In this document: positions 51,001 through 61,895 of the stretch, piece after piece
How positions within the stretch are numbered: position 1 is the first letter of the stretch
How the letters are laid out: each line of letters starts with the position of its first letter
Origin: a virus
Taxonomy: Duplodnaviria > Heunggongvirae > Uroviricota > Caudoviricetes
IMG/VR virus record: IMGVR_UViG_2523533510_000012
Reading direction: 5' to 3' (one strand)
DNA: 61,895 nucleotides
Program-made: the position numbers

Positions 51001-54000
51001 CTACAGGATGTTGCCGCTCTCGGTTCTGGTCAAAAGGCGGATGCGTTACAGAGTTTTAACTCGCTGGCAGACAGCAGTCTGGCAAAAGCTAAATCGGACG
51101 CACAGGCGGCGTTTACGAAACAGCAGGGGCGAGCCTCTCTTGTTGGCGCTGGTCTGGGTGCGGCAGGTGCATATGCGATGCATAAGGCTGGCGGTAGCGG
51201 AGGAAGTGGCGGTGCTAAAACACCTGGCACCGGCGCTAATGCCATTCAGCATCAGGCTCAGAACTGGAGACTGTGATTATGGAGTACGGTAAATACGAAA
51301 CACTTGCAAGATACGGTTATACCGGAGCAGCCCGCCCTCAGGGGGACTGGCAGACATCCGCAGCGCTGACCCGCCAGCAATACGACGACTGGCGCACCAG
51401 ATATTTACCCCGTGTAGCAAGGCTGGCTGACCTTGGGGAGAACAACAGTCTGATGAATGCACAGCTTGCACGGGTGGGAGGCCTTGCCACTTCCAGTCTC
51501 CGTACAGCGCAGATGGCGCAGGATAACCAGATGGCGAGATACGGGGTAAACCGCCCGGATAATCCCGACAGTAATACGCTGGGGTTACGTAATGCCCTGG
51601 CAATTGCTGGCGCGAAAAATGGTATCCGTGAAGCAGAGCAGGATCGTCAGATGAACATACTGACGGGGGCTTCTGCACCGGCAAGACAGAAACTGAGTGT
51701 TGGCGGCCAACTGGTGGCAGCGTAAGGGGGCAATATGGGATACGGTTTACTGGATATTGCAAATCAGTCGCGGCGTGAGGCATTACAGGGAATAAGTGAC
51801 GCAGACAGACGACGTGAAGAAATTGAGGCTGCGAACAAACAGATGGCGGCGCAACAGAAAGCGCAGAACAAGCAGAATATCGGTACGGGCATTGGTACGG
51901 GGGCGGCTATTGGCGCATCCGTTGGTGGTCCTGTTGGTGCTGTTGCTGGAGCAGTAATTGGCGGCATTGCTGGTTCTTTGTTTTAAGGAGTGGTGAATGA
52001 GCGGATTTGCACAGGGGTTACTTGCCGGATTCAGCACCGTTGACCAGGCAATGACCCGTCGTAAGGAGCTTGGTCTGCGTGAAGCACAGCTTGCCCGGCA
52101 ACAGAAAAATAACGAGCGCGATTTTGAGTTTGCGCAGTCTCAGTTTGAACATAATAAAAACGTTGATCAGCGGAACTTTGATTACAGAGCCAAAGTTGAC
52201 GACCGTAATTATGCACTGAAGGAAAGGGAGTTTAACGCTAACCAGAATTACCGGAATGCGTCACTGGGTATGGAGCAGCAGCGACTCCAGTTGCAGAAAT
52301 ACAACCAGCGACGGCTTGAGTATAACGATATGATTGCCCATAGCCAGCCACTAATGGAAGCGCTTGGAAAAGCAATTGAGGCTGGCGATCAGGAGGCTGC
52401 AACGCGTCTGTTCGGGCAGCTGCCAAAGGGACATCCATTAATTCTTATGTCAAACGAAGGCTATGCAGCGAAAGCGGGTCAGGCCGTGATCAACCTGCAA
52501 AAAATCTTTGGTGATAAGCCGGACATGGCGATCGATTCGCTGAATACCCCGGAAAATCTCGATGTGCTTTCCGGCGTGTTTGCCCCGGAACTACAACAGC
52601 GTATTGGCATGCCTGATTCAACCGGGGAAAAAACGATAAAAGAGGCCAGGATTGGCAGTATCGTACCAGCGCAGCAGGAAGGGTACGTACTTATTGGCCT
52701 TGATCTCACATACAGCGATGGCTCCACCGCGCATAAACCTGTAACAGAATACGGCAGTGCGCACCCTGATGATCAAACCGTGCTGGCGATACCCGTTGAT
52801 AAGGCTATCGCTCAGGTCAGGGATCGCAGCAAATTTGCAGAGATATCGAAAAATTATGGTTATTTTATGCCGAAGCAGCAGGGACTTTCTCTGAAAGAGC
52901 TTCAGAAGGGGGCCAGCAACGTAGCGGCGGACGCGATCAAGAATGGCGGTAATGCTCAGGCTGCGGTGGATGAATATTATGCTGCGACTGGTTCACAACC
53001 GCATCAACAGAAAATTCAGCAACAAAAACTTCAGCAACAGGTTATCAACTGGGCGGGAGATGATCCTGATAAGCTGTCATTTGCCAGAAATGTAGCGGCC
53101 CGTCAGCCTGAAATGCTGGAACCTCAGAATCAGAAATTGCTGGAGAACGGGTATGCGAATTTTCTCCGTATTCAAAAGGCCAGGGGGGAACAGGCCAGAG
53201 ATGAAAGTGCTTCATCTGCATCTCAGTTTATCCGTGGACTGAAACAGAATTACGCCCAGTAATTCACGATATTCCATTAATACCATTTCCTGATGCCCGG
53301 CCATTGTGCCGGGTTTTTTTATGGAGTCTGTATGGCCTATTCAGAGGAACAGCGTCCTGAGGCGCAACTCGGTAACCAGAATCGTAACAGCCTGAACATT
53401 CAGCAACCCGGCGAAACTGACAGCTATGAAGCATTTTTCTCTGATCCGAATCGCTGGAAGGATAACAGTACGTCGTTCAGCCTGGGCGATGTATTGCCAA
53501 CAATGGGTAAAGGTTTCGCCCAGTCCGTCCGGGGAACAGGGGAAATGGCCCGTGGACTCGGTGATGCGATGATTCAGAGCCCGGTAAAAACAGGGGCGCG
53601 TATTTTAAATGAGTTTAGCCGTATGGGGCTGCCGGGTGTCGCAACTGTGCAGGATATTTTTGCCGGTGGCAGCAGGGGGGCTGATGAGGTCATCGATACC
53701 CTGCCTGATGGCAAAAACGCGGTTACTGATACTGTCGGTAAAGGTCTGAAGGCAACCGGTAAGGCTGTCAGTGATGGTGCCAAAGCCACTGATGAATGGC
53801 TGACCGGTAAGATGTCGCCGGGTGCAGTTCGTGCGCTGAATACGCCGATGACCGAAGGCTATAATGATTCTGCGGTCTGGGTGGCGAAGGGTGTAAACCT
53901 GATTGGTGCGCTTGTACCTGATATGGTTGCTGGCGGTGTGGCTAGAAAGGTGGGTGATGTCACACTGCGAAAAATGCTGACCGCCGGGCTGGAGAAAAAA

Positions 54001-60000: not shown

Positions 60001-61895
60001 GCAACGGTGAACACGTCGTATAACCCGGAATTCCTGGTCAGTAACTTCATCCGTGACGTGCAGACGGCGGTGATGAACCTGAAGGCGGAGCAGGGAAGGA
60101 GCGACGGTAAACTGAAAGGGCTGGATAACTTATCCGCCCTGGCTGTGGTGAAAGACAGCCGTTCTGCCATGTCAGCCGTATACGCCAGTCTGCGTGGTAA
60201 AACCCTCACGGGAAAAGGTGCACAGTGGCAGAAGGTGTGGAAAGAGTTTGTTGAGGACGGAGGGAAAACCGGCTGGTTTAACATGGGTGACCTTGAAGGC
60301 CAGCAGAAGGAAATGGATCGCCTTGTCTCACTGGCGAAGGGGGGATGGAAAGGCCAGAGTATCGGTGCATGGAATTCGTTCCTTAACCTTGTCGAGGATG
60401 CCAACGGTGCGGTTGAAAACGCTCTGCGTCTTTCTGCCTATAAGCACGCCCGTGATGCCGGTTTGTCACGCCAGCAGGCGGCGTCTCTTGCCAAAAACAT
60501 GACGGTGAACTTTAACCGTCGTGGTGAGCAGGGAGCGCTGATGAACTCGCTGTACATGTTCGCCAACGCCAGCATTCAGGGGACCGCAAACCTGGTGAGA
60601 ACGCTCGGACATCTTAATGGCGACGGGCCGTTACTGGAGCGCCTTCGCTGGAAGAATCTCAATGTACCGCAGAAAATCGCGCTTGCAGCTGTGGGAGCGG
60701 GTTATCTGCTTGGCTCGCTTAACCGCAGTGTTGCGGGGGAGGATGATGACGGGGTTAACTGGTATGACAAGGTGCCGTCTCATGTGAAAGAGCGTAACCT
60801 CGTCATTATGAAATCGGTGTTCGGGGGCAAGGCCGGAGAGTACTGGAGTATTCCTCTGCCTTACGGGTACAACGTTTTCTTCCTGCTCGGGCATACCGCT
60901 GAAGGTGTGGCGGCGGGTGACCTGACGGCGTCCCGTGCTGCCGGTAATGTTGTTGGTGGTGTGCTTGGTGCATTCAGCCCGATTGGCAGTGAGACGTCGG
61001 AAACACTGTCCGGGGCATTGCTGAAAAATGCAGCGCCGACCATTCTGCGTCCGTTTGCGAACCTTGCCATGAATGAAAACTTCATGGGGGCGCAGATTTA
61101 CCAGGAGAACATGCCGTTTGGTACACCAAAACCTGACAGCCAGCTGGGAAGACGTTCAACGCCAGAAGCGTACAAGGCGTTTGCATCCTGGCTGAATGCG
61201 TTCTCAGGTGGCAGCCAGTACCGTTCAGGCGCGGTGGATATCACACCGGAATCGCTGAAATACTGGGTGGACTATATCTCTGGTGGTACAGGGCGCTTCA
61301 TTTCCAAAACCACGGATGCGGCGGTGAAATCGCTGAACGGTATTGATATACCGGAACAGCAGGTGCCTTTCCTGGGGAAAATTTCAGGTGAGGTGATGCC
61401 GTATGTTGACCAGCAGAAGATGTACGACCGGATGACAGAGGTTGCGCAGTATCACGCAGAGCTGAAGAGTCTGACCGGCGCAGAAAGAACGGCGTTCATT
61501 GACGAGAACAACGGAAAATTGTCGATGAACGGGCTTATGCAGGATACCCGGAAGAGACTGAAGGATTTGCGTAAACAGCGTGATGCCATTTACGCCGACA
61601 GTACTCTCAGTCTGGCGCAACAGTCGGCGATGGTGAAATCGGTAGAGCGGGATATGAAAATTGCCGTGGATCGGTTTAACCGCGAGTACAACAAAAAAGT
61701 GGGAGTGGATTAACAGAAATGGCCCCGTACGGAAGTGCGGGGCTAATGTGATTGGGGAGGGTGAGGATACCTGACACATCAGAGGTGGCGAGGGATTCCT
61801 CCCTTGCAGAGGTCTTTCTTCGTTATCAGTGCCGTCACAATGACGGTAATACAGAGATGAGCAGGGTGATTAACATCGCCTTTTGCTGCTTTCAT

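Follow-up and report, generated by a model that had tools for sequence, protein, structure and literature searches.

A giant cysteine-free protein of short-tailed Shiga toxin phages with predicted zincin domains, probably an ejected polyvalent protein of the virion

Introduction

The internal proteins gp14, gp15 and gp16 of phage T7 and gp7, gp16 and gp20 of phage P22 are required for infectivity, dispensable for packaging and released at infection, and the Dar proteins of phage P1 are dispensable for infecting non-restricting hosts. The present study concerns the giant gene that ends the late region of IMG/VR virus record IMGVR_UViG_2523533510_000012 (Caudoviricetes), the whole stretch of 61,895 nucleotides (nt) being referred to as the window. 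Its product, hereafter the giant, is 2,793 amino acids (aa) long and contains two HExxH motifs, and we consider it probable that it is an internal-virion polyvalent protein of short-tailed Shiga toxin (Stx) phages (Sepvirinae), which is ejected and combines a core delivery role with an enzymatic payload. The giant is functionally analogous to the ejection proteins of T7 and P22, although neither a lytic transglycosylase domain nor a fold likeness to T7 gp15 or gp16 was found in it, and unlike the P1 Dar proteins it is essential, as judged by deletion of the corresponding gene of phage Sp5.

The closest described proteins are ORF80 (ECs1242) of Sp5 and gp47 of phi24B. Mondal et al. (2016; PMC5155283) deleted Sp5 genes singly and found that the ORF80 mutant gave neither plaques nor lysogens on Escherichia coli K-12, a defect that could be complemented, while DNase-protected phage DNA was present at wild-type amounts and the heads looked normal. 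In the same study, an antibody against the tail fibre did not bind the ORF80-deletion particles, deletion of ORF79 (421 aa) led to the same phenotype as deletion of ORF80, and deletion of ORF76 led to very poor infection. A preprint on phi24B (bioRxiv 10.64898/2026.04.10.717836) reported gp47 in purified virions, noted LPD5, LPD1, LPD38 and 'MuF-C' domains in it, and proposed it to be an encapsidated ejection protein. According to that preprint, gp47 is in none of the cryo-electron microscopy maps, the tail is built fully from other proteins, and an unassigned density in the lumen vanishes on ejection.

Polyvalent proteins, in the parts of Iyer et al. (2017; PMC5512222) to which statements from that paper are confined here, resemble the giant in their LPD5, LPD1, MuF-C and LPD38 domains, interspersed zincins and position adjoining virion genes. 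The giant likewise joins several LPD or effector domains in one chain and is encoded among late virion genes, after those for the nozzle, the needle and small virion proteins. Comparable proteins are N4 virion RNA polymerase and P1 DarB/DdrB, which are likewise of very large size and head-packaged, leave the particle early and contain zincins (Iyer et al., 2017), but the giant has no RNA polymerase, methylase or helicase module in Pfam searches; the DarB-type pair of methyltransferase and helicase is absent from it, and both occur in relatives that share its N-terminal module. ArdC of plasmid R388, the metalloprotease domain of which is needed to overcome restriction in the recipient (PMC7213743), is a transferred polyvalent-type protein with a zincin, as the giant is proposed to be, but it belongs to another peptidase family, carries an ArdC-N single-stranded DNA-binding domain that the giant lacks, and is encoded by a conjugative plasmid, not a phage.

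Publications or public annotations thus already cover the gene and the fact that it is essential and virion-borne, as well as its polyvalent domain families and the hypothesis of ejection. New in the present study are the placement of both HExxH motifs in predicted zincin domains, the recognition of LPD1 as part of the first of these, the correction of the 'MuF-C' label and of an AAA+ call, the probable true start, the architecture of end modules and cargo with a glycine zipper, the set of cysteine-free proteins, and gp48 as a virion protein.

Results and discussion

Identity of the giant gene and experiments on its orthologues

When the 8,382-nt region of the giant gene was compared by megablast with GenBank phages, 186 records were retrieved, every one covering at least 80% of the query and nearly all being Stx-converting phages of E. 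coli. The top matches, P13374, TL-2011c and phiON-2011, showed 100% nt identity, and VT2-Sakai (Sp5) showed 98.9%. P13374 is an O104:H4 outbreak phage that RefSeq places in Sepvirinae, and its last late gene, the giant gene, is labelled 'LPD5 domain-containing protein'. The preliminary description of the window had left the domain content uncharacterized from sequence alone; much of it was already annotated in public. The giant and phi24B gp47 (vb_24B_48) share 2705 of 2794 residues (97% aa identity). These identities assign the window to a short-tailed Stx2 phage and the giant gene to the orthologues of Sp5 ORF80 and phi24B gp47, which have the same length and the same place at the end of the late region and show no material difference. 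On this sequence basis, the Sp5 essentiality and phi24B virion-proteome data carry over directly to the gene in the window, which was located as follows.

53332-61713, plus strand: giant gene (2,793 aa plus stop), from the listing of open reading frames (ORFs) and identity to the Sp5 and phi24B orthologues

It lies in a single ORF, 53293-61713, of 2,806 aa at its longest, and the chain has a mass of 307 kDa. As had been described at the outset, this ORF ends the late block; it is the final plus-strand gene of the window, and downstream of it only the start of a minus-strand ORF is present.

In the phi24B proteome table, only the capsid protein exceeds gp47, which has 10,962 spectral matches, so that the proposed presence in virions is borne out for a 97%-identical protein. 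Of these matches, 6,321 fall in four gel slices above the peak slice of the 80-kDa portal, and the peptides run from residue 19 to about residue 2684, including the first HExxH peptide GNGPGALAHEWFHSLDNYFGR. Experiments by others thus show that near-identical orthologues are packaged in quantity outside the visible capsid and tail, and that without the protein DNA is packaged but infection does not follow. Because deletion in Sp5 abolishes infection even of K-12, the giant has a core role in infection besides or instead of anti-defence.

The failure of the anti-tail-fibre antibody to bind DNA-filled heads lacking ORF80, together with the fact that the gene closes the block of tail genes, would also suit a structural or assembly factor of the tail, be it a scaffold, a tape-measure-like protein or a tail-attachment ATPase, as was proposed in the Sp5 study from a COG1483 AAA+ hit. 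However, the Walker A pattern [AG]xxxxGK[ST] occurs nowhere in the giant, Pfam and NCBIfam detect no P-loop or AAA family in it, and neither Pfam nor PHROGs matches it to a tail or tape-measure family, so that the AAA+ ATPase and the tape measure were both rejected. Moreover, the phi24B tail is complete from other proteins, gp47 is abundant by mass spectrometry yet absent from the density, and the central cassette described below also occurs in conjugative elements, which are tailless. A tail factor is therefore improbable, and neither the AAA+ call for Sp5 nor the 'MuF-C metallopeptidase' label of the phi24B preprint could be reproduced on the giant of the window.

Domain architecture of the giant

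Pfam matched four families in the giant, LPD5 (E 8.3e-45), LPD1 (1e-23), MuF_C (1.3e-17) and LPD38 (3.5e-48), all far above their gathering scores. The likeness to packaged polyvalent proteins noted in the preliminary description is supported by these families and by the abundance of gp47 in virions. In PHROGs, the whole giant fell into phrog_616 (unknown function), with partial matches to giant-protein families, namely DarB-like antirestriction at aa 2351-2681 and, weakly, 'virion RNA polymerase' at aa 235-649 (E 0.004). The features of the gene are listed below from 5' to 3'.

53332-54651, plus strand: N-terminal module (aa 1-440), the core of which (about aa 170-440) is common to the N-termini of about 70 giant clusters (phmmer)
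54544-54606, plus strand: glycine zipper GAALGAAMGAPFGAVAG (aa 405-425), at the end of the N-terminal module and followed by YRGRR
54652-56031, plus strand: linker (aa 441-900), acidic, Pro/Gln-rich and of low complexity by composition per 100 aa
56038-56451, plus strand: conserved cargo cassette, first segment (aa 903-1040), with a IEDFGEEIKGAAK motif, from the consensus of an 86-sequence alignment and matching the N-termini of stand-alone LPD5 proteins
56482-56931, plus strand: LPD5 domain (aa 1051-1200; PF18799)
56875-57651, plus strand: predicted zincin domain 1, CLCA_X-type (aa 1182-1440), with conserved H1263, HEWFH 1284-1288, D1291, D1362 and E1375
57181-57195, plus strand: HEWFH motif (aa 1284-1288), from motif scan and alignment
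57694-58131, plus strand: zincin-like domain 2 (aa 1455-1600), a strand-strand-helix core with HEIIH and conserved E1587, matching no Pfam family
57982-57996, plus strand: HEIIH motif (aa 1551-1555), from motif scan and alignment
58579-58848, plus strand: MuF_C (PBECR) domain (aa 1750-1839), predicted RNase (Pfam PF18819 and alignment)
58978-61710, plus strand: C-terminal module (aa ~1883-2793), mostly helical, from homologues and AlphaFold2, including LPD38
60757-61374, plus strand: LPD38 (aa 2476-2681; Pfam PF18857, 164.6 bits)

Both HExxH motifs stand exactly where the preliminary description had put them, at residues 1284 and 1551. Their number is not due to chance, because the composition of the giant (38 His and 201 Glu) predicts 0.037 such motifs, and both are kept in distant homologues. 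A homologue search with aa 1201-1700 returned 1,132 proteins, and LPD5 and LPD1 occurred together in nearly all of those listed below about 60% identity. Conservation was assessed in an alignment of 86 sequences at 28-61% identity, except for four rows covering domain 2 alone. H1284, E1285 and H1288 (HEWxH) were invariant (86/86), E1375 was kept in 83/83 and E1382 in 79/83, H1263 and D1291 were conserved in more than 94%, and conservation over H1263, Y1264, E1265, D1291, D1362, Y1369, E1375 and E1382 ranged from 93 to 100%.

An AlphaFold2 model built on the alignment had a predicted local distance difference test (pLDDT) score above 85 over aa 1041-1450, which includes LPD5, and placed in order a backing helix, three strands, the HExxH helix, an insert and the E1375 helix. 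The HExxH motif lies at the start of a predicted helix (1282-1297), and E1375 and E1382 lie on another (1373-1391); of these two glutamates, E1375 is the putative third zinc ligand. The model of domain 1 contains the N-terminal helix, three-stranded sheet and active-site helix of the zincin core and resembles solved zincins. The closest folds were the protein or peptide endopeptidases PPEP, lethal factor, MtfA, IrrE, CapP and Spartan, not LAS or M23 enzymes, and Foldseek ranked the same kinds of protein first, without significance. Comparison of aa 1201-1700 with all Protein Data Bank chains, by single sequence and by the 86-sequence profile, gave nothing useful, and the Pfam family MPTase-PolyVal matched neither HExxH domain even at E values up to 1.

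In NCBIfam, aa 1182-1437 matched profile positions 3-245 of the 250 of CLCA_X (NF041907) with an E value of 8e-44. CLCA_X, which Lenart et al. (2013; PMC3650047) defined as sister to the metalloprotease domain of CLCA, comprises zincin-like domains carried by phages and plasmids. Domain 1 agrees with it in a length of about 250 aa, an HExxH followed by a conserved Asp, and 243 of 250 profile positions matched, and by sequence it is related to the family but divergent, falling outside the curated membership; in the part of the literature on the family that was covered, no biochemical test of a CLCA_X protein was found. H1263 and D1291 also correspond to the His that ends strand 2 and the Asp that stands three residues beyond HExxH in a widespread clade of phage-type peptidases (Iyer et al., 2017). 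We conclude from sequence and model that domain 1 is of the gluzincin type and a predicted peptidase. The Pfam match to LPD1 (aa 1361-1440) covers its C-terminal part with the glutamate helix, and we conclude that LPD1 is the glutamate-helix half of domain 1 and not a separate domain. LPD1 and LPD5 are treated as separate domains of unknown function in that part of Iyer et al. (2017), whereas in the giant LPD1 lies inside the zincin. LPD5 and LPD1 always accompany the zincin.

The second motif is usually HEAFH in the homologues that have the region and follows the first by about 232 residues; a few homologues have HExxxH instead. With rows lacking the domain included, the Glu was kept in 43/44, the first His in 34/44 and the second His in 29/46, and a downstream acidic helix (consensus EE-MLADAFA) aligned with E1587, which was kept in 31/36. 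AlphaFold2 modelled the strand-strand-helix core with pLDDT 80-96, and hhalign aligned it with the core of domain 1 at E 3.6e-4, with a probability of only 37%, pairing HYEP..VINL....HEWFH with HAFYRP..IVLV....HEIIH. Domain-2 segments of eight homologues, searched against Pfam, gave faint zincin matches only. With moderate confidence, sequence and model suggest a small, unclassified zincin-like domain. Profile and structure searches around the two motifs, as called for in the preliminary description, thus placed both in conserved zincin-like domains, the second with moderate confidence.

MuF_C (64.2 bits against a gathering score of 27.6) has conserved H1752, D1768-P1769, S1775, H1801 and S1816-x-Y-G, and H1752 and S1816 are kept down to 21% identity. 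Iyer et al. (2017) describe MuF_C as a predicted RNase of the BECR fold, the active forms carrying a His on the first helix and, towards the end, a Ser or Thr. The domain in the giant, with this active-type His/Ser pattern, is accordingly named here as a predicted RNase. Neither HExxH motif falls within aa 1750-1839. Because both lie outside MuF_C, itself a predicted RNase, the 'MuF-C metallopeptidase' of the phi24B preprint merges, on the present domain assignment, two separate domains.

That preprint credited to 'MuF-C' a zinc-peptidase that would digest peptidoglycan so that an extension of the tail reaches the inner membrane. Wall-degrading activity is frequent among podophage ejection proteins, and Pfam finds no lysozyme or transglycosylase domain elsewhere in the giant that could take this part. 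The position of the motifs outside MuF_C and the likeness of domain 1 to endopeptidases of proteins and peptides rather than to LAS or M23 wall peptidases speak against the proposal, as does the genomic setting of relatives. The LPD5 plus two-zincin cassette forms a stand-alone protein of 874 aa in an element with a type IV secretion system (T4SS) and relaxase (L006 8001-10625; L007 6098-8722) that has its own M23-TrbL wall enzyme, and a 795-aa protein ending the late region of a phage that has a separate SLT-bearing protein. These occurrences, stand-alone in a T4SS element and in a phage with its own SLT protein, argue for a transferable unit with an effector or processing function and against an enzyme of the cell wall, and we regard digestion of peptidoglycan by the giant as highly improbable. 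The neighbours of the cassette in L006 and L007 encode TrbL, an M23-TrbL fusion, TnpV, a group II intron reverse transcriptase and a MobA/MobL relaxase with LPD7.

The linker (aa 441-900) matched no Pfam family and is probably largely disordered, judging from its composition. No 19-residue window of the giant reached a Kyte-Doolittle value of 1.4 or more, and a classical integral-membrane protein was rejected for want of a strong transmembrane helix. A lysozyme was likewise rejected on the Pfam result given above.

Conserved end modules and exchangeable cargo

A phmmer search with aa 1-450 against 1.84e9 representatives retrieved 105 proteins, about 70 of which were 2,000-5,500 aa long and matched always at their N-terminus; a word-indexed search had found enterobacterial relatives only, the rest being obtained with the exhaustive phmmer. 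Of 68 giant homologues, 66 had a glycine zipper within their first 650 aa, in most cases near aa 290-430, with basic residues commonly following. Five giants sharing the N-terminal module were scanned for domains: one had MuF_C and LPD38, one LPD38 alone, one a Sno-type helicase and LPD38, and two ended in LPD39, after a methyltransferase, ddrB-ParB, LPD5 and LPD1 in one and an Eco57I-type methylase and SNF2 in the other. In the three with LPD38 (P0303, P0310 and P0317), this domain was similarly placed at the C-terminus. An N-terminal glycine-zipper module and a cysteine-free composition found no mention in the part of Iyer et al. (2017) used here.

The last 951 aa were 34-58% identical to the C-termini of proteins with a methyltransferase, ART-PolyVal, LPD3 or InPase upstream. 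AlphaFold2 modelled the C-terminal module as one large, mostly helical unit (pLDDT 81.6; predicted template modelling score 0.79). The invariant residues in this unit fall into three stretches before LPD38, aa 2228-2244, 2358-2366 and 2384-2417, which have the look of a binding or catalytic site; none of the known motifs was recognized there. These invariants (aa 2228-2417, nt 60013-60582), for the most part polar, comprise T, P, F, N, R, D and Q in TSYNPEFLVSNFIRDVQTA, N, E and R in VENALRLSAY, and NFNRRGE and ANASIQG.

The giant can accordingly be described, from sequence comparison, as a conserved N-terminal module, a linker, a swappable cargo and a conserved C-terminal module, the place of the cargo being taken elsewhere by methylases, helicases, ParB nucleases or ADP-ribosyltransferases. 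The gene order recurs in a distant metagenomic phage, which has a needle-type gene, small genes, a gene for a 523-aa protein, and then giant ORFs ending in ART-PolyVal and LPD38. The 523-aa protein (L003 4699-6270) has a weak N-terminal likeness (E 1e-4) to the 421-aa protein encoded just upstream of the giant, with a shared GFAxGxxxGF motif. The LPD38 C-terminal module also occurs as a stand-alone gene for 981 aa in an Amphritea sp. prophage (L002 10001-12946), next to integrase, excisionase and early recombination genes and not tail genes; the N-terminal module and cargo are therefore not needed for this module to function or to be packaged.

These relatives bear on whether the giant might be purely a carrier of anti-defence effectors, like P1 DarB or ArdC, with no role in DNA delivery. 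Its domain families do belong to the polyvalent-protein catalogue, PHROGs matches aa 2351-2681 to DarB-like antirestriction proteins, relatives with the same end modules carry methylases, SNF2 or Sno helicases and ddrB-ParB, the LPD5 plus two-zincin cassette stands alone in a T4SS/relaxase element, and ArdC needs its metalloprotease domain against restriction (PMC7213743). However, lysates of the Sp5 deletion mutant made in K-12 were non-infectious on K-12, where anti-restriction should be unneeded, the giant has no methylase, helicase or nuclease cargo in Pfam searches, and the N- and C-terminal modules are kept whatever the cargo. A purely anti-defence function is thus unlikely.

Upstream virion genes and cysteine-free composition

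Four genes precede the giant gene in the late block.

50620-51276, plus strand: gene for 218 aa, phi24B gp51 and, by gene order, Sp5 ORF76; in virions, without Cys
51279-51725, plus strand: gene for 148 aa, phi24B gp50; in virions, without Cys
51735-51986, plus strand: gene for an 83-aa glycine-zipper protein, annotated 'bacteriocin'; detected in virions at a low level, without Cys
51997-53262, plus strand: gene for 421 aa, Sp5 ORF79 (essential) and phi24B gp48; in virions, without Cys

The identification of ORF76 with the 218-aa gene follows the ECs numbering. All four orthologues were detected in phi24B virions, in agreement with the earlier view of them as internal or ejection proteins, and spectral matches numbered 83 for gp50, 82 for gp51 and 6 for the 86-aa frame orthologous to the 83-aa gene. 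The glycine-zipper segment expected in one of the four proved to be that of the 83-aa product, the C-terminal end of which is GTGIGTGAAIGASVGGPVGAVAGAVIGGIAG; its match to Pfam Gly-zipper_YMGG (E 9.4e-6, 25.7 bits) just missed the cut-off of 28.9. The phi24B authors discounted gp48 (a 'transcription factor') and the 'bacteriocin' homologue as contaminants on the strength of their annotation (bioRxiv 10.64898/2026.04.10.717836). In the batch sample of the proteome table, however, gp48 exceeds the portal, with 179 matches to 101, and the gel slices in which it peaks lie directly above the peak of the capsid protein, as would suit an intact protein of about 47 kDa. Because Sp5 ORF79 is essential, we read both as genuine internal virion proteins; that gp48 belongs to the internal or ejected proteins is very likely.

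The giant contains no Cys in 2,793 residues, and 68 related giants contain 8 in 201,232 residues, 62 of the 68 having none. Cys is also absent from the needle (46686-47954), which is released on infection, and from the four virion-detected upstream proteins, whereas the nozzle has 8, the portal 6, the capsid protein 2, and the product of a 133-aa ORF (50125-50526), which is not among the listed phi24B virion proteins, 3. Absence of Cys may be a mark of proteins that move unfolded through a narrow channel and across the oxidizing periplasm, and it might serve as a general compositional marker of ejected phage proteins.

Proposed role of the giant

Considering these results, we propose the following scenario for the giant as an ejected polyvalent protein. 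Once the needle is released, the giant would leave the capsid ahead of or with the DNA, unfolded, via the channel of portal and nozzle, and such passage fits its total lack of Cys. The end modules and the small Cys-free upstream proteins may help to build or gate the passage through the envelope, with the glycine zippers as membrane-inserting elements, and the central enzymes would be delivered into the cell. There the zincins may cut the polyprotein into working pieces, a host protein, or both, and the RNase may act on host RNA. More tentatively, the end modules and the four small Cys-free proteins could form a distinct trans-envelope apparatus for DNA delivery, unrelated in fold to those of T7 and P22 and with swappable cargo freed by the zincins, an extension that is possible but on balance doubtful.

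Several points weigh against this scenario. That the giant is injected into the cell is a proposal for which presence in virions and the lost lumen density are indirect signs, and its zincin and RNase activities are predictions from sequence. The Sp5 authors read a defect in tail assembly from the unbound tail-fibre antibody, which the ejection model does not directly explain, and the spread of gp47 over gel slices cannot tell processing from degradation, the sample being six months old. As to the domains, the CLCA_X match of domain 1 scores 150 bits, below the NCBIfam curated cut-off of 260; domain 2 fits no curated family, with faint Pfam matches only (Peptidase_M76, 0.15; SprT-like, 0.17), and both its histidines are less conserved than its glutamate; and the MuF_C part of the AlphaFold2 model is poor (pLDDT below 50). 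A structure search with the C-terminal module found no solved relative beyond generic helical bundles, and its possible role as a conduit is suggested by context.

Through short-tailed Stx phages, Shiga toxin genes spread within E. coli, which makes a protein required for their entry a medically relevant target. The domain map singles out E1285, E1552, H1752, the glycine zipper, and cargo versus end modules for separating a delivery role from an effector role, and the pattern of chassis plus cargo and the family-wide lack of Cys may be general rules for recognizing injected phage proteins.

Start of the giant gene and other features of the window

A terminator-like element lies between the 421-aa gene and the giant gene.

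53295-53321, plus strand: hairpin scored terminator-like, with T-run

The RefSeq/GenBank start, ATG 53293, is 13 codons upstream of ATG 53332 and adds the only two cysteines. ATG 53332 is probably the true start, because a GGAG (53323-53326) lies 5 nt before it, while ATG 53293, which has no Shine-Dalgarno sequence, sits at the foot of the GC-rich hairpin (53295-53314) that precedes the T-run. The reported length of Sp5 ORF80, 2,793 aa (PMC5155283), equals that of the product from ATG 53332; an N-terminal peptide of gp47 that would fix the start was sought in the phi24B proteome data and not found. A terminator-like hairpin before the largest late gene might modulate expression of the giant gene.

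Between the needle gene and the block of internal-protein genes, 48253-50100 contains accessory genes, for which the P13374 annotation gives a membrane-associated protein, Lom and a MokW-like host-killing peptide, with several terminator-like hairpins flanking them at 49719-49737 and, on the minus strand, at 50077-50100 and 50228-50251. Farther upstream, tRNA genes for Met-CAT, Arg-TCG and Arg-TCT lie at 24841-25092, a site usual upstream of stx in Stx phages, and the phi24B record names its matching trio Ile, Arg and Ser.

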